A DNA stretch of 53,268 bases from Escherichia phage Ecp_YSF, in sequence record OR327751.1. One strand, 5' to 3'. Made by a program: the position numbers and the translations under genes. The number at the start of each line of letters is the position of its first letter. Position 1 is the first letter of the stretch. The notes under the pieces were generated by a model, which was not told where the DNA came from, made no database searches, and saw nothing but the letters and a program-made list of their open reading frames with translations. This document shows, one piece after another, positions 1,240 to 40,790 of this stretch.

Positions 1240-3003
1240 ATGAACGTCAAGCAATGTGTGGCTAAGATTAAGCACGATGTACCAGACTGTAAATCCACAT
1301 CTGGCAAGTCTTTACAGGTTTGGTTGAATGTCGATGAAGCTGGTAATAAGAACTTCTCTGGTTACTGCTTTGCGTGTGGCGTTCTAGTACCAAATCCTTA
1401 TGGCAATAATCCGGACAACATTCCAGAGATTAAAGTCAAAACTCCAGAAGAAATTCAGGAAGAAGTTGATGAAATCACTGCTTGTCCTCCGTTTGATTTA
1501 ACCCATCGCAGCATCGAGCCAGACTTCTGGAAAGCTGCTGGTGTTCGACTTCTGTATTCAGAGTATGATGGGAAGACTCCAAATGCTCTGGCACATGGCT
1601 ACACCAAAAATGGTAAACTTGTTCGTTGGAAGATTAAACTTCTGAACAAGAAAGTTATGTGGTCAGTTGGCGACACCCAGGGTAACGACCCTTACAACTG
1701 GATGGCTGCAAAAGCAATTGGCGGTAAGACACTGTTCATCACAGAAGGTGAAGAAGACTGCATCGCATTGCGTCAAATCCTCAAAACTATGAACCGTGGT
1801 GGTGCATACGAAGATTTGGATTTTGCTGTAATTAGTTTGAGTGACGGAAGTGACTCCGTACACAAATGTTTGTCACCAGTTGCAGAAGAAATTAAGCAAC
1901 GTTGGGAGCAGGTTGTTATTGTATTCGATGATGATGAACCTGGACGTAAAGCTGCAAAAGAAGCGTGTCGATTGTTGCCTGGTGCAATGATTGCAACACT
2001 TCCAGCTAACGATGCCAACGATTGTTTGAAGCGTGGCTTGCTCAAAGCTACTCAATCTGCTGTTGTGTTCCGTGCTGCTCGTCCTCTGCCTACAGCACTT
2101 GTCAACAAAGAACTTCTTATGGAAGAGCTTGATGATGAGGTTGAACAGGGTGTGGATTATCCTTGGCCCAAGTTAACCGACTTAATGTTTGGTCAACGTC
2201 GAGCCGAAGTTATTACAATCGGTGGTGCAGAAGGTGGTGGTAAAACTACCCTGTCCCGTCAGATTGTGCATCACAACATTACCAAGCACGATTGGGGAGT
2301 GTTTACTGCATACATGGAGGAAACTCCTACAGAAACACTGCGCCGAATGGCTGGCCTTAATGACAACTTGCCATATTGGGAACCTGCGTTTACTCGTGAA
2401 GACCCTCGATATGATGAAGCTAAGTTCCGTCAAACTGCTGCGAAGATGCTTCGTAACATGGAGATTTGGGACCGCAAGCAAGCTGGAGAAGACCCTTATG
2501 AAACCTGGGATGGGTTAAAGACGATTCTTCGTCAGATTGGACCAGACATTGATATGTTTGTCCTTGATAACTTAACCTACTTATCGGAAGGGATTTCTGC
2601 CTCAGAGAAGAACGACTTCTTAGGTAAGCTGTATGCAGATATTACTAAGCTGGCAGACCAATACCAGTTCCATGTAAATATCTTGTCGCACCTTAACCCT
2701 GTGGCAAAAGGTCAACGACCTCATGAGGATGGTGGACGTATTAAGAAGTCAGACTTTACTGGCTCACGTGCTGCTGCTAAATATTCTCATGGCATGTTCG
2801 GCTTTGAGCGTAATAGCCAGGCAGTTGACCCAAACTGTTCTATCATTCGTTCCATTAAGGCTCGTAAGAGTGGTAAAACAGAAGGCTTCAAGACGTATTA
2901 TGACACCGAATCTGGTCGAATTATTCAACGTTCTTGGGACGACTCGCTGTTCGAAACCAAAGAGATTGTTCAACTTACTAAGAAGAACGGTCCACATCAA
3001 TAA
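1240..3003 (+). CDS. bifunctional DNA primase/helicase (T7 gp4-like)
   Basis: TOPRIM motifs ITEGEEDC and FDDDEPGRKAA. Walker A GGAEGGGKTT and Walker B-like MFVLDNLT in the C-terminal half. Confidence 0.9.
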   Translation: MNVKQCVAKIKHDVPDCKSTSGKSLQVWLNVDEAGNKNFSGYCFACGVLVPNPYGNNPDNIPEIKVKTPEEIQEEVDEITACPPFDLTHRSIEPDFWKAAGVRLLYSEYDGKTPNALAHGYTKNGKLVRWKIKLLNKKVMWSVGDTQGNDPYNWMAAKAIGGKTLFITEGEEDCIALRQILKTMNRGGAYEDLDFAVISLSDGSDSVHKCLSPVAEEIKQRWEQVVIVFDDDEPGRKAAKEACRLLPGAMIATLPANDANDCLKRGLLKATQSAVVFRAARPLPTALVNKELLMEELDDEVEQGVDYPWPKLTDLMFGQRRAEVITIGGAEGGGKTTLSRQIVHHNITKHDWGVFTAYMEETPTETLRRMAGLNDNLPYWEPAFTREDPRYDEAKFRQTAAKMLRNMEIWDRKQAGEDPYETWDGLKTILRQIGPDIDMFVLDNLTYLSEGISASEKNDFLGKLYADITKLADQYQFHVNILSHLNPVAKGQRPHEDGGRIKKSDFTGSRAAAKYSHGMFGFERNSQAVDPNCSIIRSIKARKSGKTEGFKTYYDTESGRIIQRSWDDSLFETKEIVQLTKKNGPHQ

Positions 3004-3010
3004 CAGAGCT

Positions 3011-3042
3011 GCTACGCTGCATGGTTCGCCCACCAGCGTAGC
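3011..3042 (+). promoter_or_regulatory. 9-bp perfect hairpin between the primase-helicase and polymerase genes (possible processing or attenuation site)
   Basis: GCTACGCTG (3011-3019) pairs with CAGCGTAGC (3034-3042) around a 14-nt loop. No U-tract follows. Confidence 0.3.
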
Positions 3043-3068
3043 CCTCACCAATCCATTGGAGCCATACT

Positions 3069-5248: not shown

Positions 5249-5264
5249 TTTAAAGGTACTCAAA

Positions 5265-6131
5265 ATGGCATTTGCTGCTCCTACACTGGCCTCGAACAAG
5301 ACTCCTTCTGCTGCACCATTACTGGAAGCGGGTGGTTATCCTGCTCGTGTTTGCCGTATTATCGACCTGGGCTTACAGCCTGGTTCTGCTAAATATCCTA
5401 CTCCGTCCTTGAAACTTCTGGTTACTTTCGAACTGCTCGACGAGTACATGAAAGAAGTTGACAGTGAAGGTAAAATGGTCATGGTCCAAGACCCAGACGA
5501 AGATGACGGCATCATGATGGCGAAGAATCTTGAAGACAAGCCGCGTTGGTTTGACTTTGAGTTTACCTATAATGCTGACGGCTTCATGGGTGAGAACTCC
5601 CACATCTACAAATTCGCTAAGGCGATTGATGCACTGGAAGTTAAACCTAATCTGGAACAAGGCATCCAGGGCCATCCTGCCAAGAACCTGCCGGACTGGT
5701 TGGGCGAACCCCTGATTGTTGGCATTGTTCAGTATACCAAGCAGTCAGGTAAGAATGCTGGCCAGGTTGCAAACAAAGTTGCTACCTTCTCTCCGATGAA
5801 ATCTAAGGAGAAGAAAGAAGCTAAAGCTCTGGTTAACCCGACTGTCTTCTTTGACATGTCTGAGCCGGACTTAGAAGTATTCAACAAACTGCCAGGTGGC
5901 GAATCTCCGTATGCAATCAAGAACCGTATTACTTCCGGTGTTGATTTCTACAAGACTAAGCTGTCTGCACTGTTAGGCGGTAAACCTGCCGATGAAGGCG
6001 CTGTACCGAATCAGGCTTCTGATGAAGAAGTTGATGCAGCTATGAAAGCTGAACTGGAAGCACAGGCTGCTGCAAAAGCACAGCGTGAAGCAGAAGGTGG
6101 CGCTGCTGGCGGTACGGGTATGCCGTTCTAA
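5265..6131 (+). CDS. putative ssDNA-binding/annealing protein (T7 gp2.5-like)
   Basis: Lies between the polymerase and exonuclease genes. Strongly biased codon usage and a strong terminator just downstream. Ala/Gly/acidic C-terminal tail ends in an aromatic residue (..GGTGMPF). Function assigned by analogy only. Confidence 0.45.
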   Translation: MAFAAPTLASNKTPSAAPLLEAGGYPARVCRIIDLGLQPGSAKYPTPSLKLLVTFELLDEYMKEVDSEGKMVMVQDPDEDDGIMMAKNLEDKPRWFDFEFTYNADGFMGENSHIYKFAKAIDALEVKPNLEQGIQGHPAKNLPDWLGEPLIVGIVQYTKQSGKNAGQVANKVATFSPMKSKEKKEAKALVNPTVFFDMSEPDLEVFNKLPGGESPYAIKNRITSGVDFYKTKLSALLGGKPADEGAVPNQASDEEVDAAMKAELEAQAAAKAQREAEGGAAGGTGMPF

Positions 6132-8483: not shown

Positions 8484-9102
8484 GCGATTAGCTGTTATTC
8501 TCAATGGACCTCCTGGCTGCGGTAAAGATACCATTGCAAATAAGATTGTTGCTGCCGAGGAACCTTACTTTCTTGGCAGGCGCAAATTCATTAAACACCA
8601 GTTTAAGGATGCACTGTATGAGCATACTGCCAAACACTTTCAAGTTGATGTGGACAAGTTTATTCACTACGCTTCGGACCGTGACCTCAAAGACTCTATC
8701 TCCCTTGCAGGTCTTGGTGGCAGAACACCTCGTCAGGCTCTTATTCACGTTAGCGAAGATGTGTATAAGCCTCGCTACGGACAAGACTACTTCGGTAAGG
8801 TTGAAGCTGCTCGTGTTGAAGAACTCGCGGGGCGTATGGGTGGCATTATTAATGTCATTTATCCCGATGGCGGTTTTGGTGATGAAGTCGTTGCCATTGA
8901 GTCTGCTTATGATTTTGTCCTCATTGTGCGTTTGCATCGTGATGGTTTTGATTTCACGGGCGATTCTCGCAGATACATCAACCTCCCAGACACACCTACC
9001 CGCGTAACAGTGGATGAGCATCTAGTTGATGGTAAAGTGGGTGATTCTGTATTCAAAGTGTTCAACTGGATTGAACGCGTAACTTATCAAGTAGAGAAAT
9101 AA
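8476..9102 (+). CDS. putative deoxynucleoside monophosphate kinase (P-loop)
   Basis: P-loop ILNGPPGCGKDT. Start uncertain: TTG 8476 follows GAGGA, and GTG 8464 is an alternative. The ORF-track start 8374 would overlap the ligase gene by 110 nt. Confidence 0.55.
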   Translation: MIKRLAVILNGPPGCGKDTIANKIVAAEEPYFLGRRKFIKHQFKDALYEHTAKHFQVDVDKFIHYASDRDLKDSISLAGLGGRTPRQALIHVSEDVYKPRYGQDYFGKVEAARVEELAGRMGGIINVIYPDGGFGDEVVAIESAYDFVLIVRLHRDGFDFTGDSRRYINLPDTPTRVTVDEHLVDGKVGDSVFKVFNWIERVTYQVEK

Positions 9103-10236: not shown

Positions 10237-12274
10237 AAACAAAGAGAACGAATCAATGTCAAAGACTGATGACCTCGGACCGGAGTTTAATGATACAGTA
10301 GCCTCGTATCTTGCCAAGCACTACGGTGACGTATTAAAAGTCTCAAGAGAAAGATTCTGTATTCTATCTTTGCCATTGCTCCGTCGATATATTTCAGAAA
10401 ATACTGCAATAGTTGACAGCTATGAAGAACAAATTCAAGCAGAGTTAGAAGGCCAGGGTCTTGAAAACGATGCTGTATTGCGTTCCGTTTTCAGAGCACA
10501 ACTTGAGCGTCTTCGCTCTGGCGACAAGAAAGACTCGACTGCCTATGCAGATGAGTTGAAGAAAGGTATTCAAGCAGGTGTTACTGACCGTGTTGCAGGT
10601 TCCACATTAGAGGAGCCAAACTCGGAGCATGATAACACCGAGGAACTTGTAGACAAGATTCTGCATGACCCACATAACGTGGACCCAACTGTAATCCCTG
10701 CCAAGGTTGCAGAACGTGTTCGCAAAATCTTGATGAAAAGTTTCGAAGCCTTTGGTAAATGGCAGTTCCATATTCAGATGGGATTTCCATTTCAAGCACA
10801 AGACTTTCATGATGTAATATTCAGTGTTGGTCAGAAGGTTGTTGATGGTGAGATTGACCGCTTAATAGTGACCATTCCTCCACGACACTCTAAGACTCAG
10901 CTTATGAGTATTGCATTGCCCTTGTATTCATTTTGCCACAATGAATCGAGCCATAACATTATCACCTCGTATGCAGAAGACGTTGTTCTTGAATCGAGTG
11001 GTTACATCCGTGCTGTAATGATGGACCCACTGTTCCAACGAATATTCCCGAAGGTGAGAATCGACCCTAACAAACGTTCACTTGAACGCTGGGGTACAAC
11101 CAAAGCTGGAGTTATGCACGCAGTACCTACTGGTGGTAAGCTAACTGGTAAAGGTGCTGGACTTCTTGTTGCAAAATATTCCGGCTGTTTCGTGGTGGAT
11201 GACGTTATCAAGCCGAAAGATGCCTACTCTGACACAGTTCGAGCAGAAATCAACGACCGATTTGATAACACCTTTATGTCACGTCTTGCCAACGATGGTT
11301 GCATAACTGATTCGTACGGAAACCAAATTAAGTGTGCCCGTACACCAATGGTTATCATCATGCAGCGAGTTCATGACCAGGATTTAGTTGGTTACATACT
11401 CCGTGGTGGCTCTTCTGATAAATACCATTATCTCAATATCCCAGCGATTATTGAGAAAGGAGTTGGAAGTGCTGAGTGGTATGATAAGTTAATCAAGAAG
11501 CAGAACTACACTCATGCTATTCCCATTCTGTATAATTTGAACAGGAAGGAAGAGAAGTCTGCATTATGGCCTTCACGTAAGAGCTTAGAATCCCTGGAGG
11601 CAATGAAAGAGTCTAACCCATACACATACAATTCACAGTATGCTGGCGACCCATCTGCACAAGGCCACGGCCTTATCAAAGAAGATTGGTGGCAAGAGTA
11701 TGAGCCAGACGTTTTCGACAGAAGTCGCATAGTCAGAAGTTTTATTACAGCGGATACGGCATCAACTGCCAAATCCTATTCTGATTATTCGGTCCTTAAG
11801 CATTGGGGCGTGACTAAAGAGCGTGATGTTTATTGTTTAGATATTATGCTCGGTAAGTTTGAAACTCCAGAACTCAAGACTGCTATCATCGACTTCTGGA
11901 ACAAATGCAACAAGTTGGACTTGAAGTGTGTAGGCTGTATTCCTCGTGCATTGTACATGGAAGACAAGTCTGCCGGACAATTCTTGAACCAACAATTTAT
12001 CAGAGATGGGAGTGTCCGAGTTTTACCATTGCCTCGTGATGGGATTAATGGTAATGACAAGGTAACTCGATTCCTTAACGCAATCCCATATTTCTCACAA
12101 AAGAGAATATTCTTCCCTGCTGGTCATGAACACATCGACCACGTTAGACGTGAAATACTTGGATTCACTTCTTTGGGTAGTGGTACTGGACACGACGATT
12201 GTGTCGATAACGTTTCAGATATGGTTGCAATCGAATTCTCAGGCCCAAGTGCCAACTACTCCGCATGGATGTAA
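10229..12274 (+). CDS. terminase large subunit
   Basis: Walker A-like IPPRHSKTQ and Walker B-like CFVVDDVIKP, with a nuclease half. About 190 aa of N-terminal extension. The true start may be ATG 10256. Confidence 0.85.
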   Translation: MIKNKENESMSKTDDLGPEFNDTVASYLAKHYGDVLKVSRERFCILSLPLLRRYISENTAIVDSYEEQIQAELEGQGLENDAVLRSVFRAQLERLRSGDKKDSTAYADELKKGIQAGVTDRVAGSTLEEPNSEHDNTEELVDKILHDPHNVDPTVIPAKVAERVRKILMKSFEAFGKWQFHIQMGFPFQAQDFHDVIFSVGQKVVDGEIDRLIVTIPPRHSKTQLMSIALPLYSFCHNESSHNIITSYAEDVVLESSGYIRAVMMDPLFQRIFPKVRIDPNKRSLERWGTTKAGVMHAVPTGGKLTGKGAGLLVAKYSGCFVVDDVIKPKDAYSDTVRAEINDRFDNTFMSRLANDGCITDSYGNQIKCARTPMVIIMQRVHDQDLVGYILRGGSSDKYHYLNIPAIIEKGVGSAEWYDKLIKKQNYTHAIPILYNLNRKEEKSALWPSRKSLESLEAMKESNPYTYNSQYAGDPSAQGHGLIKEDWWQEYEPDVFDRSRIVRSFITADTASTAKSYSDYSVLKHWGVTKERDVYCLDIMLGKFETPELKTAIIDFWNKCNKLDLKCVGCIPRALYMEDKSAGQFLNQQFIRDGSVRVLPLPRDGINGNDKVTRFLNAIPYFSQKRIFFPAGHEHIDHVRREILGFTSLGSGTGHDDCVDNVSDMVAIEFSGPSANYSAWM

Positions 12275-15321: not shown

Positions 15322-15614
15322 CGCCACCTCCAGCCCCTACAGTATCTGCTGTAGCTGGAGTTGTAACGGCTGATGCGTCTTCTACTGATGCCACTGTAAC
15401 TGTAGACAAGCTGTTCAAGTTTGGGAACTCTACAGCAACAGATTATAACTTCGCTGTTACACCTCCTGTGACTGGTGTTTCTGTGGCGGCAAACGGCACT
15501 GTGACTGTCTTGAATGAGACGACCACAGAGACTTCTGCTACAATTAAGGCAACAAACAAAACAACCTCTAGCGTAACTGCGACCAAAGAAATTACCATTA
15601 CGCCGAAGGCTTAA
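14848..15614 (+). CDS. same protein, long isoform made by a -1 frameshift at C CCA AAG (15309-15315), adding a 99-aa Ig-like domain (about 255 aa)
   Basis: The -1 frame is open 15303-15611 and has no start codon. Canonical X XXY YYZ heptamer sits 4 nt before the stop. Hairpin at 15328-15360. The extension shows an Ig-like beta-strand pattern. Confidence 0.55.
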
Positions 15615-15669
15615 GTTGCAATGGCGCAATTAATGGTTGCGCCTCATCAAACAAAACGGATTAATTTAC

Positions 15670-20821: not shown

Positions 20822-20997
20822 CTGCAAAGTTCCCGGAAATAAAATACTTCTTGCACCGTCCTGTAATAGAGGACAGTTCACTCTGTTCTCTTAAAGAGTT
20901 ACAAGATGGGACCTACTCTATTATGGATTTGTTGACCTTCCACGCAATACTCGATTTGCGTAACGAATTAAAACCTAAAGAAGAAGACAATGGCTAA
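20363..20997 (+). CDS. tail assembly chaperone, -1 frameshift long form (slip at T TTT TTC, 20719-20725; about 211 aa)
   Basis: The -1 frame is open 20719-20994 and ends at TAA 20995-20997, overlapping the ATG of the next gene. No start codon of its own. Confidence 0.55.
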
Positions 20998-34827: not shown

Positions 34828-35382
34828 ATGTTATCATTCAAAGTCCTTGCACTTCTGACAGCTTTAGTTCACATCAACGCCCCAGCTTCGGTTGGGGCAG
34901 TGAATTCTGCTATTACAGATTTTGCAAGTCACTCTTATTTAAATGGAAGTCTGAAACTATCTTCTTCACAACGCAAAGAGCTAGAATGCTATACTAAAGT
35001 TATCTGGTATGAAGCTCGCGGAGAAGACAAACATGGAAAGATTCTGGTAGCTAATGTCGTCCGTAATAGAACTAAGTTCGGGAAGCCATTCGCTAACACC
35101 GTTTGTGATGTTGTCTATCAACGCAATCAATTTGCATGGACACGAGAAGCAAAGAAGAAGAATGCTCAATGGAAGCATGTAGCAAAGATTAATTATGCCA
35201 CAGAACAACAACAAGTTCTGGACACCATTAATGTTGCAATCTCTTTTGTACTATTCAATCAACCCTCTGTCACCAAAGCAACCCACTTTTGTACAGCATC
35301 GGAGAAGTGCAACTTCAAGAATGTTAAAGGTTTGGGACGTTATGGTGGCCATAAATTCTATGAGTATCTAGGAAATCTGTAA
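34828..35382 (+). CDS. SleB-type cell-wall hydrolase endolysin with N-terminal signal/SAR sequence
   Basis: [24 protein letters not shown]...[15 protein letters not shown] is the Hydrolase_2/SleB pattern. N-terminus [24 protein letters not shown]. Confidence 0.8.
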
Positions 35383-36482
35383 TGGCTTACACTACCTTTT
35401 CACAAACCAAGAATAACCAACTATTAGAACCAATGTTCTTTGGTCAGAACGTTAACGTTGCTCGATATGACCAACAGAAGTACAGCATCTTCGAGAAGTT
35501 AATCGAGAAGCAGTTATCTTTCTTTTGGCGACCTGAGGAGGTTGATGTTAGCCAGGACCGAATTGACTATGCTGGTCTTCCTGAGTGTGAGAAACACATT
35601 TTCACCAGCAATTTACGATACCAAATCCTGCTTGATTCCATTCAGGGGCGTGGACCAACTACAGTTTTGCTACCAATTGTGAGCATTCCTGAGCTTGAAA
35701 CTTGGATTGAAACTTGGTCATTCTCAGAGACAATTCATTCTCGTTCTTACACGCATATTATTCGTAATATCGTGACAGACCCAAGCGTAATTTTCGATGA
35801 AATTGTGGAGAATGAGCATATTAAAATGCGTGCAATTGGCATCTCCCAATATTATGACGAGCTTCAACACCTAACTTCCATGTGGCATCTGCATGAAGAC
35901 AAAGTTTCTCTTCGTGAGCTTAAGAAGAAGCTGTATTTATGCCTCATGTCTATCAATGCATTGGAAGCAATCCGCTTTTATGTCAGCTTTGCTTGCTCAT
36001 TTGCCTTCGCTGAACGCAAGTTAATGGAAGGAAATGCCAAGATTATTCGCTTAATTGCTCGTGATGAAGCACTCCATTTGACTGGAACTCAACACATGCT
36101 GAACCTTCTTGCAAGCGGTGTTGATGACCCAGAAATGGCCGAAATTGCTAAAGAATGCCGCCAAGAATGCCAAGAAATGTTCGAAAATGTGGCCCAACAA
36201 GAGAAAGATTGGGCTGATTATTTGTTCAAAGATGGCTCAATGATTGGCTTAAATAAGCAAATTCTGTGCGGATATGTGGAATATATCACGAATATTCGTA
36301 TGCAAGCAGTTGGATTGGATGCTCCATTCAAAGGTGCTACTAACCCGATTCCTTGGATTAACGCATGGTTGAATTCGGATGCTGTACAAGTCGCTCCACA
36401 AGAAACGGAGATTAGTTCGTACCTTGTCGGGCAGATTGATTCCGAAGTGGACACCAATGCTCTTGGCGGATTTGAGCTTTAA
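35382..36482 (+). CDS. nrdB: class Ia ribonucleotide reductase beta subunit
   Basis: Near-collinear with E. coli NrdB as I recall it ([11 protein letters not shown]...), including the C-terminal tail [11 protein letters not shown]. Confidence 0.95.
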
Positions 36483-36529: not shown

Positions 36530-36571
36530 GAGCTAGAATAAGACAAGTAAATTAAATATTTATTTATTCCC

Positions 36572-36588
36572 AATATTGCTACAATATT
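36572..36588. promoter_or_regulatory. operator-like near-palindrome AATATTGCTACAATATT
   Basis: Belongs to the AATATTGTGACAATATT family that recurs at 39.6-40.2 kb. Confidence 0.4.
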
Positions 36589-36627
36589 AAGAGTAATATT
36601 AGGAATGCGTAAAGTTAAAACCAAATG

Positions 36628-36651
36628 GTACATGGTCGGTCAACTGTACCT
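36628..36651 (+). repeat. 24-nt element GTACATGGTCGGT-N5-GTACCT (copy 1; copy 2 at 40113-40136)
   Basis: 19 of 24 positions identical, with identical spacing, between the two copies. Copy 1 forms the hairpin GGTACA/TGTACC. Confidence 0.6.
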
Positions 36652-36721
36652 AGACATAGACTTGTTCACAATCGGTCAGCTGTATCTAGCCGGAATTTGT
36701 TCGAACAGAAGTCCGACTATG

Positions 36722-36761
36722 TTATAAAAATTTTTATATAATTTTTTTTAATTTAAATATT
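36722..36761. other. 40-nt tract of pure A/T (candidate DNA-unwinding element)
   Basis: Read directly: no G or C between 36722 and 36761. Confidence 0.6.
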
Positions 36762-36855
36762 GTTACGGAATTAATGAGACTCAAATTGTTTCAATATTAA
36801 TGAGACTAGAATTGTAACGATATTGACGAGACTAGAATTGTGGCAATATTATAAT
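36759..36855 (+). repeat. four tandem 26-bp repeats (ATTGTnnCnATATTnAnGAGACTAG), iteron-like
   Basis: Units start at 36759, 36785, 36811 and 36837 with an exact 26-bp period. Confidence 0.8.
36823..36852 (+). promoter_or_regulatory. possible sigma70-type promoter upstream of the RNA polymerase gene
   Basis: TTGACG (36823-36828), an 18-nt spacer, then TATTAT (36847-36852). Confidence 0.3.
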
Positions 36856-37026
36856 TTTTATTTTGGGCCAGCGGGGGAGGGGAAGCCCAACGTCCTATCG
36901 GACTTAAATACGGTCCCTACTCCAACTTTTTCCTACAGCCTATCGGCTTTCAAACAACACCAAGTTAGGCGCTTCGCTTATGGGTCAAGGTCAAAGTCTC
37001 CGTGCTGTTGTAACAATGGCACAGGT

Positions 37027-37049
37027 TTGTGATATTAGTTGGTTGTGAA
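37027..37049 (+). promoter_or_regulatory. phage RNA polymerase promoter P1
   Basis: Core ATTAGTTGGTTGTGAA matches the family consensus at 15 of 16 positions. Lies 67 nt upstream of the RNA polymerase ATG. Confidence 0.65.
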
Positions 37050-37115
37050 TTGTGTAATGGCTACGCTATTATAATCCGTTTCAGTTAAATCATACACAAT
37101 CTTGGAGACTTACAA

Positions 37116-39056
37116 ATGATTACTATCACCACTCAAACTATCAAATCTGTTGTTCCTGCTATCACTGCTCTGGTATACCGTGCCAAAGAGAAGCAGAACT
37201 ATATGCAGCCTCAGACTTGTGCTATTGCTGCCCTAGCCATATTCAAGATGATGACGTCTTTCACTCGTGATGACGTTGTTCCTGCCATTGCGATGGTTGA
37301 GCTGGCTTCTGCTTCTATTGCTGATGCCAACCGCTACAACAACGATTTGAAAGCAATGCACTATGTTGACCCAGCTATCAACCTCATTGGTTTGGCTAAG
37401 CACTTTGGCTTCATCACCATGAACGAAGACAAGTCATTCCAGCAAACTGACACATGGGTTGAACTGGTTACAACCAAAGACACAGCAGTGCCATTCACTG
37501 AGCGTGTTACATCTGAATCTCGTCGCAAGCCTTTCGTTAAAGGTGGCAAAGTTAAGCCATCCAAAACTCTGAAAGCTGCAATCGAATTCCTGCAAGATAC
37601 TGAGTACCATGTGGAGACTGAGATGGTTCGCATCATCCAGTCCATGCTTGAGCAACGTACTTATGGTGGCTTGCAGATGCCAGAAGCAATCCAAACTGAA
37701 CTCCATGTTTGGAACAATGCTGTAGCAATGATGAATCAGGATAAGCTGTATTCTGACTACTTTGCTGATAACCGTGGTCGTCTGTATCATGTAGCATGTG
37801 CTGGTCCTAACCCACAATCCTCTGACTTTGCTCGTTGCTTGTATTCTCACAATGTTGAGAACATCGTTAAGAAGTTTAACGAAGATGGTTCTACTACCAT
37901 TGCATACAACATGTTCATGGCAGAGCTGGAAGATATTTCCGGTGGTGAATGGTGCAGTGCTAAGCGTTTAACTTATGTTGCTCAGAATCCAGCTGGTTCA
38001 CTTGCTCGCATGATGAACATGCCTAAAGCTGAGCGTCCTTCTAAGCCATTCACTTATGTTCGTCTGGCTCTGGATTGGTTCAAGTTTGAGACTACAGGTG
38101 AATGCGATTCTCGTGTAGGCTTTGGCTTAGATGCTAAATGTTCTGGTACTCAATATCTGGCATTCATTGCTGGTAACATGGAAATGGCTCGTGCAACAGG
38201 TCTGGTTGATTCTGAGACTAAAGCATCTGACCCATACCAGTTGAGTCTTCGTGAACTGTTGAAGCTGCTGGACAAGTCTTCAATGAAACCATCTCCTGAA
38301 ATTATGGATGAATTCTTGAATCCGAAAGCTGGTCGTAAGTTTATCAAAACTCCATACATGGCTATCCAATATGGTGGTGGTAAAGCTGCACTAACTGGTT
38401 CTTCTGACTTTATCTCCTACATGACAGAAGCTCTCCAGATTCCTATGGAGAAAGCTGAGGCATTTGCTGAACTGTGTGTAGAAGCAATCCATAACGCATT
38501 GGGTGCTAAGATTAACATGTTCATTGAGAAAGCTGCTGATGCTGCATACAACCGTTGTGTTGAACTTGGTAAAGAGTACATCACATACCGTCACACTGAT
38601 GGTCAGGTTGTAATGAAGCCTTGCTTCCCATCTCGTGAAATCTGTGAGGCATTCAGCATTCGTGTTGACTCCCAAACTCGTGTTATCTTTGGTCAGATTC
38701 AGGAGAATAAGCCTTGGACCATTCGTGAATCCAATCCAACTAAAGAAGAATTCAAGCGTACTTTCGTTGTTAACTACATTCAAGGTATTGACGCACTGGT
38801 TGCTCGTACTGTTGCAGTTAAAGCTAAAGAAGCTGGTCTTCGTGGCTTTACTTCAATTCACGATTGTTTCCGTTGCTGCTTAGCTGATGCTCCACGTATG
38901 ATGGAAGTTATTCGTGCAGCATATGTTGAAATCTTCGTAACCAACAATCAATTCGAGAATCTGTCTAAGCAACTCGGTGGCATTCAGATGTATCATGAGA
39001 ACATCGTAACCGAAGAGCTTCTGATGAGCGAACACGCTTACTACTTCTGTCAATAA
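37116..39056 (+). CDS. single-subunit DNA-directed RNA polymerase (T7-like, compact, 646 aa)
   Basis: Motif A-like GLDAKCSGTQYLA, motif B-like KFIKTPYMAIQYGGG, motif C FTSIHDCF. RBS GGAG upstream. Confidence 0.9.
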   Translation: MITITTQTIKSVVPAITALVYRAKEKQNYMQPQTCAIAALAIFKMMTSFTRDDVVPAIAMVELASASIADANRYNNDLKAMHYVDPAINLIGLAKHFGFITMNEDKSFQQTDTWVELVTTKDTAVPFTERVTSESRRKPFVKGGKVKPSKTLKAAIEFLQDTEYHVETEMVRIIQSMLEQRTYGGLQMPEAIQTELHVWNNAVAMMNQDKLYSDYFADNRGRLYHVACAGPNPQSSDFARCLYSHNVENIVKKFNEDGSTTIAYNMFMAELEDISGGEWCSAKRLTYVAQNPAGSLARMMNMPKAERPSKPFTYVRLALDWFKFETTGECDSRVGFGLDAKCSGTQYLAFIAGNMEMARATGLVDSETKASDPYQLSLRELLKLLDKSSMKPSPEIMDEFLNPKAGRKFIKTPYMAIQYGGGKAALTGSSDFISYMTEALQIPMEKAEAFAELCVEAIHNALGAKINMFIEKAADAAYNRCVELGKEYITYRHTDGQVVMKPCFPSREICEAFSIRVDSQTRVIFGQIQENKPWTIRESNPTKEEFKRTFVVNYIQGIDALVARTVAVKAKEAGLRGFTSIHDCFRCCLADAPRMMEVIRAAYVEIFVTNNQFENLSKQLGGIQMYHENIVTEELLMSEHAYYFCQ

Positions 39057-39097
39057 CATTAATTGGGTCAAGGATGACCACAAACTTGGAGACTACA

Positions 39098-39298
39098 ATG
39101 AATACCATGCAAATCAATCAAATCGAAAACTGTTTCAATCCTCATCACACCTGTGACATGAGTGATTTATCTCGTCCTACGGTGGAGGAGACTAAAGACT
39201 TCTTAGAATTGTTATCAGAATATAAGCAAGAGTCGCATGTATTATTGCACGCATTCTTGCATAATTCTGGATTCTTTGATACAGAAATACCGTTCTGA
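39098..39298 (+). CDS. small acidic protein ending in ..FFDTEIPF (66 aa)
   Basis: ATG 39098 lies 6 nt after GGAG (39088-39091). The ORF-track start ATG 39074 has no spaced RBS. Confidence 0.55.
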   Translation: MNTMQINQIENCFNPHHTCDMSDLSRPTVEETKDFLELLSEYKQESHVLLHAFLHNSGFFDTEIPF

Positions 39299-39303
39299 TA
39301 CTT

Positions 39304-39329
39304 GGGAGCTTCGGCTCCCTATTTTTGTT
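39304..39329 (+). terminator. strong rho-independent terminator after the RNA polymerase operon
   Basis: GGGAGC-TTCG-GCTCCC followed by TATTTTTGTT. Confidence 0.85.
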
Positions 39330-39367
39330 CTAATTAATCTTAGAGCTGGCTTCAATATTGTAGCCAG

Positions 39368-39390
39368 TTGTAACATTAGTTGGATGTGAA
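39368..39390 (+). promoter_or_regulatory. phage RNA polymerase promoter P2
   Basis: Core ATTAGTTGGATGTGAA matches at 16 of 16 positions. The hairpin AGCTGGC..GCCAGTT lies immediately upstream. Confidence 0.7.
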
Positions 39391-39633
39391 GTAACAGAAT
39401 ACGGAGAAGTATTCCGCATGTCATGTTGAAATCATTCTAGAAACATTTCAGCATGTCAACTAAACATACAGCGTTGTAATGATGTGGCAATCATTGAACT
39501 CCCTGTCTTTGGCCGGACAAAGTTCCAGCAACCATGTGTGAAGTAGGAATATCATTCGAAACTGTTCTTCAAATAAACATGACTTATCCCTAAAGAAGCT
39601 GGGACAGCTCATGTAGTACCAGCATGTTCAATT

Positions 39634-39661
39634 GTGACAATATTGCTCCATCTCCTATTAT
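39634..39661 (+). promoter_or_regulatory. possible sigma70-type early promoter
   Basis: GTGACA (39634-39639), a 16-nt spacer, then TATTAT (39656-39661). Confidence 0.35.
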
Positions 39662-40058
39662 AAAGGCCCACCCACAAGCCGGGAGATAACTTTGGTAATA
39701 TTGGAACTTTTGGACATGCTTCTTTCTTTCAATCAGAATTCGAAAGAAGAGAAGAGTCGGAGCAAAGCCGCGAAACTAATCCCGTAGCCCGCCCCGATTT
39801 TGAGCAACAAATATTGTGACAATTTTGTCGCAGTATGGCATGTAAATATTGCTACAAATTGGCATGTTGGAATGTGGCAGAATTGTTAGAGGACTAATCC
39901 CCTCGAAGATACAATCGTCTACCAATCTGGCATGTTATTTTTGTAACAGTATTTGTGCCAATTTCGCATGTATTAGCTGTATCAGTATTAACCCAATATT
40001 CTTGCAACCCGCATGAATACTGGCTTCCAGCCAAGCGAAGGCTTTATCATCGCATGTA

Positions 40059-40075
40059 AATATTGTGACAATATT
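40059..40075. promoter_or_regulatory. perfect 17-bp palindrome AATATTGTGACAATATT (operator-like)
   Basis: Read directly. Related sites lie at 39629-39645, 39810-39826, 39845-39860, 39937-39953 and 40207-40221. Confidence 0.6.
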
Positions 40076-40112
40076 GGGATAAAACCCTTTATTTAATTAG
40101 TTTTATTATGCT

Positions 40113-40136
40113 GTACATGGTCGGTTTTCCGTACCT
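40113..40136 (+). repeat. 24-nt element GTACATGGTCGGT-N5-GTACCT (copy 2)
   Basis: Matches 36628-36651. Confidence 0.6.
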
Positions 40137-40262
40137 GCTTGCTCCAATCTTAATGTGCCAAATACGTTAAGTATGGGAGTAAACCTGTAATTAATGGTGC
40201 ATGTTTAATTGTGACAAAATTCGTCTATTTGGCAGATGAATTAGTTGCAATTAAGCATGTTC

Positions 40263-40285
40263 ATTTATCATTAGTTGCATGTGAA
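40263..40285 (+). promoter_or_regulatory. phage RNA polymerase promoter P3
   Basis: Core ATTAGTTGCATGTGAA matches at 15 of 16 positions. A weaker copy, ATTAGTTGCAATTAAG, lies at 40240-40255. Confidence 0.6.
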
Positions 40286-40484
40286 TAAGACCAAATCTCT
40301 GTAAATTCTGCCGAAATTGTGTGACAGATTTTAGAGAGATTATGTCTCCAAGCTAATCATTGCAGTTTTTCGACACTTTGTGTGTCACATATAGCCTGTG
40401 AAAAACGTGTGGTATATTGCTGGATTGCGACGCGCCCACCAGACTAGGAAGTCACTGACGGCGGCACACACAGGAATACTATAT

Positions 40485-40555
40485 AACTCCCTACAACTTT
40501 AAGGTGGATTGAGGTAAGACAAGACCTCCACAATCGTTCTGTAGGGAGTTCTTTT
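40485..40555 (+). promoter_or_regulatory. structured leader element (11-bp basal stem plus T-run) just upstream of the first early gene
   Basis: AACTCCCTACA (40485-40495) pairs with TGTAGGGAGTT (40540-40550), followed by CTTTT. Confidence 0.35.
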
Positions 40556-40571
40556 AACTCAGGAGAATAAA

Positions 40572-40790
40572 ATGACTCGTTTTAAAGATTTGGTAGATGG
40601 TGCAATCTTCTTTACGCGTGGTGGGGAACATCTGCAAAAGGTTTTGGAAGATGACATTAATGTAAATGCTGTATTCGTTGGTGATTCTAACATTGGTGTT
40701 TTATTAAATGACAATGAAAGGACTTTTACCGAGGAGGAGTTTAAAGAAATCTCAGCCTCTGATTTAGTTCAAGAGCCAATTGAAGTTTAA
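40572..40790 (+). CDS. early hypothetical protein (72 aa)
   Basis: RBS AGGAG upstream of the ATG. Confidence 0.65.
   Translation: MTRFKDLVDGAIFFTRGGEHLQKVLEDDINVNAVFVGDSNIGVLLNDNERTFTEEEFKEISASDLVQEPIEV

Follow-up and report, generated by a model that had tools for sequence, protein, structure and literature searches.

A putative cis-acting control region built of two-part sequence units at the junction of terminal repeat and unique DNA in Escherichia phage Ecp_YSF and other Chaseviridae

In bacteriophage T7, the promoters phi1.1A and phi1.1B and the primary origin of replication lie directly after the RNA polymerase gene, combine promoter-like motifs with an AT-rich tract, and lead into the next gene class. 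Here we describe a region alike in all these respects in Escherichia phage Ecp_YSF (sequence record OR327751.1; the whole stretch analysed, 53,268 nt, is called the window). It is an island of 1242 nt, located after the phage RNA polymerase gene and before the first early gene (ATG at 40572), and it contains at least 10 co-oriented two-part units. In contrast to the T7 primary origin, the units exceed 10 and are unlike the gene-proximal promoter motif, and a 2.9-kb terminal repeat takes in the polymerase gene as well as a third of the island; a role as origin would be putative. Altogether, comparison across the family points to a conserved, predicted cis-acting control region at the junction of the left terminal repeat and unique DNA.

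Other described systems share separate traits with this locus. The SRL and SRR arrays of T7 and its concatemer-junction pause likewise present short direct repeats outside both repeat edges and signals that are strand-specific along transcription, whereas here the units are 23-bp and two-part rather than heptamers, the repeat is much longer, and some units are inside it. In T5, the injection-stop region, large, non-coding and rich in repeats, is likewise found at a long terminal repeat's inner end, and the ori and crr of P4 are also two short-repeat arrays a few kb apart, read in P4 by one protein; both are without sequence relationship to the present locus.

The window belongs to the genus Carltongylesvirus, family Chaseviridae. 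Its island and flanks are 88-94% identical to those of phiEcoM-GJ1, ST32, SA91KD and PYps23T, which are Escherichia and Yersinia phages of the same genus, and the query matched 78 phage records, 47 of them with a query coverage of at least 80%. After their polymerase gene, 4HA13 (Sabourvirus), Y2 (Loessnervirus), PM1 (Suwonvirus) and the Proteus phage PA_03 (Myducvirus) also have an island of 1.1-1.5 kb without credible genes, small non-conserved open reading frames (ORFs) being annotated within it in the records of some relatives. The initial annotation of the window, made from its letters alone, had found no credible ORF in the island, and this holds: the longest one has 55 aa and a TTG start, and indels that break the reading frame between genera run throughout the island in the cross-genus alignment, which rules out small hidden genes. 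A known structured RNA family is equally ruled out by the Rfam scan of the island, in which no model matched above threshold; a plant microRNA model gave the only hit, far short of its threshold (E = 0.26).

The most enriched hexamer of the island is GCATGT, with 11 copies observed against 0.3 expected (Poisson P = 3e-14). In the whole window, both strands included, it occurs 39 times against 38.9 expected; the excess is thus purely local. All 11 copies previously located on the + strand between 39416 and 40282 are in place, and two had gone unlisted, one at 39714 (- strand, inverted) and one at 39235 (+ strand, within a 74-aa ORF just upstream). The anatomy of the unit was established from two independent alignments in five genera, one of 53 GCATGT sites and the other of 39 cores. 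GCATGT is followed by a directional core, TGT[GA][GAT]CA, within AT-rich arms, and the full form reads GCATGT-AATATTGTGACAATATT, often then G. When the five genera are pooled, 18 GCATGT/core pairs are 11-12 nt apart against 0.66 expected, a number reached in none of 2000 randomisations, and four further pairs at 22-23 nt correspond to one more helical turn. The cores are found 39 times on the + strand and 15 times on the - strand; GCATGT precedes 18-20 of the former at 11-12 nt and none of the latter. Furthermore, the base after the right arm is G in 17 of the 39 cores (20% of the island is G), while the mirror position is C in three. The two modules are therefore coupled and helically phased, the units are stranded, and the array is far above chance. 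Units follow each other in the island at 22-25, 34-37, 55-60 and 67-69 nt, with a minimum spacing of 22-26 bp; outside this array and a second one described below, they are absent from the genome.

The 17-mer AATATTGTGACAATATT at 40059-40075 is indeed a perfect palindrome (8+1+8), as first reported. Concerning its proposed relatives, the sites at 39628, 39810, 39937 and 40205 match it at 13-16 of 17 positions, and those at 39845 and 39972 are weaker. The coupling of GCATGT to such sites stands for the copies at 39622, 39862, 39930, 39966, 40052 and 40199, which have a core 11-12 nt downstream; it fails at 39838, where TGCTACA replaces the usual core, and at 39810, which is preceded by GCAACA and not by GCATGT. 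The notion of a palindrome family, for its part, needs correction: the core is directional, TGTGACA prevailing strongly over TGTCACA, and the arms decay independently, without compensatory pairing (104 complementary pairs against 97 when right arms are permuted among sites, P = 0.11), those of the most conserved unit being able to form 2 of 7 pairs. A hairpin, in DNA or RNA, is not the conserved feature of the units. An N4-type hairpin promoter or a cruciform was rejected on this basis: the hairpins of the N4 virion polymerase also have 7-bp arms around a 3-nt centre, but a hairpin requirement is unsupported here.

The features of the island (array 2) are listed below, with position weight matrix (PWM) scores where available; family A denotes the motif family CATTAGTTGGATGTGAA / CATTAGTTGSATGTGAA, treated further on.

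39416..39456, + strand: two GCATGT words 35 nt apart, without an adjacent core; the pair is kept in Y2, PM1 and 4HA13.
39622..39645, + strand: unit GCATGT-TCAATTGTGACAATATT-G; its core is the -35 of the sole sigma70-like pair, 39634-39661.
39653..39685, + strand: block TCCTATTATAAAGGCCC..CACAAGCCGGG, near-invariant; combines a -10-like element with a short GGC/GCC stem.
39697..39720, - strand: inverted degenerate unit, AGCATGTCCAAAAGTTCCAATATT on the - strand (inverted repeat I2); TTGGAAC invariant.
39804..39826, + strand: unit with a variant word, GCAACA-AATATTGTGACAATTTT; kept in other genera.
39838..39861, + strand: unit GCATGT-AAATATTGCTACAAATTG; GCATGT invariant in six phages.
39862..39885, + strand: unit GCATGT-TGGAATGTGGCAGAATT-G; GCATGT and AATGTG.C invariant in six phages.
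39930..39953, + strand: unit GCATGT-TATTTTTGTAACAGTATT; AATCTGGCATGT almost invariant.
39966..39989, + strand: unit GCATGT-ATTAGCTGTATCAGTATT.
40052..40079, + strand: best unit, GCATGT-A-AATATTGTGACAATATT-GGGA; PWM 26.5, 17/17 match; TTGTGAC invariant in six phages.
40080..40112, no strand: AT-rich tract after the best unit; AT-rich in every genus, sequence not conserved.
40199..40222, + strand: unit GCATGT-TTAATTGTGACAAAATT; GCATGT and GTGAC invariant in six phages.
40240..40285, + strand: partial family-A copy ATTAGTTGCA at 40240, GCATGT at 40255, and full family-A copy at 40269-40285 containing the GCATGT at 40277.
40308..40331, + strand: last unit, with the variant word GCCGAA-ATTGTGTGACAGATTT; PWM 19.0.

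Conservation in relatives had been named beforehand as a test of the array, and invariant words and cores were found across five genera. GCATGT is the top or joint-top hexamer of the island in all five, with 9-14 copies on the + strand and 0-1 on the - strand. In an alignment of six phages, the word is invariant at 39838, 39862, 39930 and 40199, and the cores at 39870-39879, 40063-40069 and 40211-40215, while the spacers drift. The modules can be kept independently of each other, since at 40052 both Y2 and PM1 have lost GCATGT and retain TTGTGAC. Recent tandem duplication is ruled out as the source of the array: its units are 63-94% identical over 18-32 nt, their spacers are unrelated, and they occupy orthologous positions in the five genera. 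As a separate observation, the island of PA_03 carries a 207-bp direct duplication (2791-2860 / 2998-3067 of the PA_03 stretch) that spans one unit as well as one copy of the invariant block and explains the larger size of this island (1.5 kb, 14 GCATGT).

The architecture is also kept in a distant subfamily and its relatives, whose polymerases are ~34% identical and whose islands, of 1.0-1.3 kb, carry a different strand-specific word. This word is GTATGA in the islands of Vibrio phage VPs20 (seven copies) and Aeromonas phage ZPAH14 (seven copies; extended form CATAGGTATGAGACA) and GTGTGA in that of Shewanella phage MSO-5 (nine copies), with no copy on the - strand in any of them. In the complete genome of ZPAH14, the extended word is specific to the island, apart from one intergenic copy in the gap upstream of the polymerase gene. 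This covariation of word and subfamily fits a host or a phage reader alike, because host order and phage subfamily shift together. In the same phage, three gene-proximal gaps (5253-5329, 8855-8922 and 10967-11069 of the ZPAH14 sequence) have in common a terminator hairpin and, after it, TCTATGGTA; this differs from the island word GTATGAGAC and is a candidate promoter motif for the lineage. In the literature searched, no description of the island or of its motif strings was found, although a brief mention in the genome papers of phiEcoM-GJ1 (2008) or Y2 (2011) is possible.

Within the island, six phages of five genera share the block 39653-39685 (TCCTATTATAAAGGCCCACCCACAAGCCGGG, 33 nt) in nearly invariant form. 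It consists of a -10-like TATTAT/TATAAA and then a GGC..GCC stem, in which PA_03 shows a compensatory swap of G/C to C/G. Bracketed by the 39622 unit and the inverted unit 39697-39720, and situated within the terminal repeat ~75 bp ahead of its edge, the block may be a host-type early promoter with a 5' hairpin on its transcript.

The position first assigned to the island, between a terminator and the first gene, is correct but incomplete: the island lies on both sides of the terminal repeat's inner edge. In the concatemer the order would be array 1, repeat with the polymerase gene, array 2 and early genes, and the elements that define this arrangement are the following (a slash marks the repeat edge).

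36572..36588, - strand: lone inverted palindrome of array 1, AATATTGCTACAATATT, then outward GGGA and AT-rich DNA; PWM 22.4, 15/17 match.
36750..36851, + strand: array 1, four 26-bp tandem units GAGACT-N4-TTGTNNC(A/G)ATATT; ends 48 bp before the repeat start.
36899..39758, no strand: direct terminal repeat of 2860 bp, mapped by homology to JL1, Y2, PM1 and 4HA13.
39758..39759, no strand: inner repeat edge, ..GAGTC/GGAGC..; in JL1 ..GAAGTC/GGACAAAG; the repeats of JL1, Y2, PM1 and 4HA13 all end here.

Exact repeats are present in the records that hold both copies (JL1 2995 bp, Y2 2608 bp, PM1 2665 bp), and the PhageTerm values are 3120 bp (4HA13) and 3234 bp (Mangalitsa). The polymerase of JL1 is 99.4% identical to that of the window, and the repeat start is homologous in JL1, Y2, PM1 and 4HA13, where CGGACTTAAATACGGTCCC corresponds to 36899. 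ZPAH14 has an exact repeat of 3373 bp that likewise ends within its island. Within the repeat are the entire polymerase gene, the 74-aa ORF, the terminator and the island's first third, including the GCATGT copies at 39416, 39451 and 39622 and the inverted one; the main cluster of eight units starts 46 bp past the inner edge. Because the whole polymerase gene is contained in the repeat, the virion genome would have two copies of it, the left one with only 217 bp of upstream DNA.

A shorter repeat, of 2339 bp, has been published for PYps23T on experimental grounds (PMC8762354). Both of its edges (1 and 2339/2340) fall at one and the same position inside two copies of CATTAGTTGGN/TGTGAA, equivalent to 37033-37049 and 39374-39390 of the window; the difference may either be real or derive from a ligation or polymerase chain reaction jump between identical 10-mers. 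The repeat of Mangalitsa, unlike that of PYps23T, is consistent with the longer version. The possibility, suggested by PYps23T, that repeat edges lie on the motif CATTAGTTGG as a general rule was withdrawn, given that four other phages place them elsewhere.

Array 1 is the only one with a regular period (26 bp). It is conserved in PYps23T, JL1, Faunus, Y2 and PM1, with CGGCTC as partner word in PM1, and the lone palindrome at 36572-36588 is conserved in the same five phages. Palindrome-like 17-mers (at least 13/17 matches) number 17 in the window, 12 of which are in the island or in 36572-36851. The two best palindromes constitute a 20-bp inverted pair, CCCAATATTGCTACAATATT at 36569-36588 (- strand) and AATATTGTGACAATATTGGG at 40059-40078 (+ strand), ~310 and ~300 bp outside the repeat edges and each with AT-rich DNA outward, although Y2 and PM1 show less regular distances. 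The gene that immediately precedes array 1 is nrdB-like (35382-36482).

Two further elements frame the island.

39304..39329, + strand: intrinsic terminator closing the polymerase operon, already recognised in the initial annotation.
40486..40549, + strand: stem-loop in the leader, directly preceding the first early gene's ribosome-binding site; inverted repeat I16, perfect over 11 nt.

In the leader, a second stem is nested inside the inverted repeat (RNA fold of -26.7 kcal/mol, z = -2.06), and the placement is reminiscent of the RNase III site that precedes T7 gene 0.3. The segment 40395-40470, present only in the window and in PYps23T among the six aligned phages, includes TGTGGTATATT, a near-perfect extended -10 element ~150 nt ahead of the first early gene.

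The array has to be distinguished from a second motif family, family A, from which its units differ.

37033..37049, + strand: family-A motif TATTAGTTGGTTGTGAA before the polymerase gene, which is preceded by a motif of this type in all genera aligned.
39374..39390, + strand: family-A motif CATTAGTTGGATGTGAA at the island start, with a TGTAACA core abutting upstream.

The sequence CATTAGTTGSATGTGAA (extended form TCTGAAACATTAGTTGGATGTGAAG) has nine copies at no more than three mismatches, all on the + strand, against 0.5 expected: 37033, 39374, 40269, 43505, 44102, 47991, 48131, 48319 and 50254. They are distributed over seven intergenic gaps from 37 to 50.3 kb, for instance directly before the DprA-like and SSB genes and, further, before the polymerase gene and other middle genes, and the motif is labelled "promoter", of the phiEcoM-GJ1 type, in the annotation of SA91KD. 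Its conserved part is CATTAGTTGG, while the GGATGT part varies (GCGTGT, GGATAT, GGAATT), which rules out that GCATGT is a mere core of CATTAGTTGGATGTGAA. The CATTAGTTGGATGTGAA / CATTAGTTGSATGTGAA family is the best candidate for the general phage promoter. In the late region (1-36.4 kb) only two gaps reach 70 nt (15322-15636 and 20822-20989) and neither motif family is present in them; hence, late genes would have to be transcribed by read-through, in very long transcripts. The replication, structural and lysis genes in 1-36482 are packed almost without gaps.

The polymerase encoded just upstream is a candidate reader of the array.

37116..39056, + strand: single-subunit RNA polymerase, 646 aa; Pfam RNA_pol E = 3.7e-18; same annotation in relatives.

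In the alignment with T7 and SP6, the catalytic residues D537, R627, K631, Y639, H811 and D812 are invariant. The protein is short (646 aa against 883 aa in T7; those of the distant subfamily are longer, 718-845 aa), and in a low-identity alignment the first ~130 residues of T7 polymerase and two more segments of its N-domain have no counterpart. The AT-rich recognition loop of T7 polymerase is located in this N-terminal segment, so that a helper factor and a two-part site become plausible for a polymerase that would lack it. N4 polymerase II with its gp2 offers a parallel, in that a helper that binds DNA may be needed by a minimal T7-like polymerase; among the proteins scanned, none was identified as gp2-like. 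Likewise, among ~40 early, middle and flanking proteins compared with Pfam and PHROGs, many of them of unknown function, no DNA-binding regulator (helix-turn-helix or other) was recognised, nor a small terminase (the 109-aa ORF before TerL has no assigned function), nor a cognate initiator protein, and the polymerase gave no sequence match in the PDB. Two small proteins, of 74 aa and 72 aa, flank the island; as both are acidic and without a DNA-binding signature, a regulator encoded beside the island was dropped as a candidate.

The initial annotation had offered, without a choice, three options for the array: origin, operator array or second promoter class. Their common premise, a functional, non-coding cis element that does not depend on sigma70, is supported by the conservation across genera and subfamilies, but sequence by itself does not decide between the three. 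We tentatively, and by a narrow margin, favour the possibility that the array is a loading or promoter array for the short phage polymerase, perhaps with a helper factor, that doubles as a T7-style origin. The units would dock the 646-aa T7-type polymerase encoded just upstream within the repeat, a phage helper factor would read one of the two modules, and the array would load the polymerase rightward through the leader into the early genes. The best unit (40052-40079), with its GGGA and the AT-rich tract, could act like the "promoter plus AT-rich" primary origin of T7. That the polymerase, with or without a helper, is the reader and that transcripts or primers start at the units is what we infer from several lines of evidence. 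The units all point along transcription; they are two-part and phased; their minimum spacing suits a small single-subunit polymerase or a small factor, and not the host enzyme; the G after the right arm makes the unit asymmetric, like a start site; and the word changes between subfamilies whose polymerases have diverged, while the architecture is kept. In addition, the second array is upstream of the polymerase gene itself, the polymerase seems truncated, and the core resembles an SP6/K11-type promoter in the T7-group register. In this register the 17-mer occupies -17..-1 and the next base is +1; GTGACA then coincides with -11..-6 of the SP6 promoter, TAT falls at -4..-2 and G, or GGGA in the best unit, at +1, over a similar length of ~23 bp. 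The differences from such promoters are that the units are degenerate, clustered in one place, absent before other genes, and provided with an extra upstream word at variable phasing. The CATTAGTTGG family has no resemblance of this sort. Finally, chasevirus polymerase promoters are listed by ICTV as not yet identified (PMC12842549), which is also in keeping with polymerase loading.

Several observations weigh against this interpretation. CATTAGTTGGATGTGAA, in seven intergenic gaps ahead of middle genes and with nine copies against 0.5 expected, is the more conventional promoter candidate, and two unrelated consensus sequences are rarely read by one polymerase. Outside GCATGT and TGTGAC the units are degenerate, unlike typical T7-group promoters, and their modules are separated by either one or two helical turns, whereas a 23-bp promoter would be rigid. 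Genome-wide, no units were found ahead of late genes or gene clusters, and near-identical ~23-bp repeats are instead a feature of CATTAGTTGGATGTGAA. Each array includes one inverted unit. The SP6/K11 resemblance, moreover, is post hoc and modest: the best unit matches the K11 promoter at 14/21 positions (shuffle P = 0.017), and 22% of shuffles reach 12/21. From the side of the polymerase, a comparison with SP6 specificity is impossible, because the specificity-loop region is alignable only unreliably at 16-17% identity.

A possible though rather doubtful alternative is an operator array, in which one or more phage DNA-binding proteins would repress, or roadblock, the polymerase gene and the early genes, for instance in early shut-off. 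Its geometry recalls OL and OR of lambda, with 17-bp pseudo-palindromes of odd centre, spacings of 22-26 bp and promoter overlap: the cores overlap the upstream edge of three promoter-like elements, namely the -35 of the 39634-39661 pair and two family-A copies (39369/39374 and 37039/37033), and the invariant -10-like block has a forward unit on one side and an inverted one on the other. Like operators, the units are strictly local, and each of the two arrays precedes a first transcription unit. However, there are here 10 or more sites and not three, a directional core with independently decaying arms is unusual for a symmetric dimer, and the one-sided, invariant GCATGT partner requires a second reader. 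The repressor gene was not found among the proteins scanned, and the small flanking proteins are acidic, as mentioned above.

We consider it unlikely that the region is an iteron-type origin, with sites for an initiator or for the phage primase-helicase beside an AT-rich unwinding tract, the promoters being activating and the second array auxiliary, in the manner of ori and crr in phage P4. The geometry invoked in the initial analogy with T7 is real, the island being placed after the polymerase gene with promoter-like CATTAGTTGGATGTGAA on both sides (39374 and 40269), but sequence does not decide between an origin and the other options. An AT-rich tract comes directly after the best unit in every genus, the non-coding region is long and conserved with two repeat arrays ~3 kb apart, and the - strand of the core reads TTGTC, a T7-type primase recognition sequence. 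Against this, the four classes of unit spacing in the island are out of helical phase, no initiator gene was recognised among the proteins scanned, and T7-like replisomes are not known to require iterons. All genes are on one strand, and hence skew cannot place an origin.

Equally improbable, in our judgement, is a signal for repeat processing or packaging, where proteins bound to the arrays, or pausing of the polymerase at the strand-specific words, would mark the repeat edges for terminase cutting and duplication. Precedents exist in the short-repeat arrays by the T7 repeat, the sequence-specific pause of T7 polymerase at the concatemer junction, and the hexamer arrays that flank the P1 pac cut. 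JL1, Y2, PM1, 4HA13 and, more distantly related, ZPAH14 all have the inner edge within the island, arrays stand 48 bp before the repeat start and 46 bp after its end, and the inverted pair of best palindromes lies ~300-310 bp outside the edges. Nevertheless, the units extend over 900 bp on both sides of the inner edge, with 3/11 inside the repeat here and 5/7 in ZPAH14, the distance from the lone palindrome to the repeat start varies among genera (~150-310 bp), and no small terminase was recognised among the proteins scanned.

A more inclusive scheme, which we also regard as having little likelihood, would be a hitherto undescribed two-part recognition system for a minimal (646 aa) T7-type polymerase, in which a helper or a novel polymerase domain reads the upstream word (GCATGT here, GTATGA or GTGTGA in the other subfamily) one or two helical turns away from an SP6-like core, and polymerase loading at an array set across the inner repeat edge drives early transcription, replication priming and repeat-edge marking together. 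A mechanistic link of transcription, replication and end formation is known only rudimentarily, at the T7 concatemer junction.

Lastly, a cluster of host sigma70 early promoters like T7 A1-A3, perhaps of the extended -10 type, is very improbable and was rejected: one unit does provide a 10/12 sigma70 pair with a -10 invariant across genera (39634-39661, the only convincing pair on the + strand, as initially stated), and TGTGnCAnnnT retains TG, A at -11 and T at -7, but a consensus scan yields 7 sites against 6.6 expected in shuffles, without excess at 16-18 nt spacing and with only one + strand site coinciding with a unit, the -12 position is wrong in both registers (T in 9 of 53 units in that of GCATGT, the conserved C of GTGAC in that of the core), spacings of 22-36 bp leave too little room for the host enzyme, G falls at -7 in the Aeromonas word GTATGAG, and the departures from consensus are themselves conserved across genera, which argues for a reader other than sigma70.

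The array and the CATTAGTTGGATGTGAA family provide two conserved classes of candidate signals for the Chaseviridae, myoviruses with a T7-like polymerase, and bring together, in a single putative control region, the polymerase gene, the inner edge of a 3-kb repeat and the beginning of the early genes. Loading of the polymerase or a helper by the units would mean a new promoter architecture for a minimal single-subunit polymerase, and a possible orthogonal expression tool; marking of the repeat edges would instead touch on how exact terminal repeats of such length arise. Several phages of this kind are under development for biocontrol of E. coli, Erwinia and Pectobacterium, and their early control region would be of practical value.

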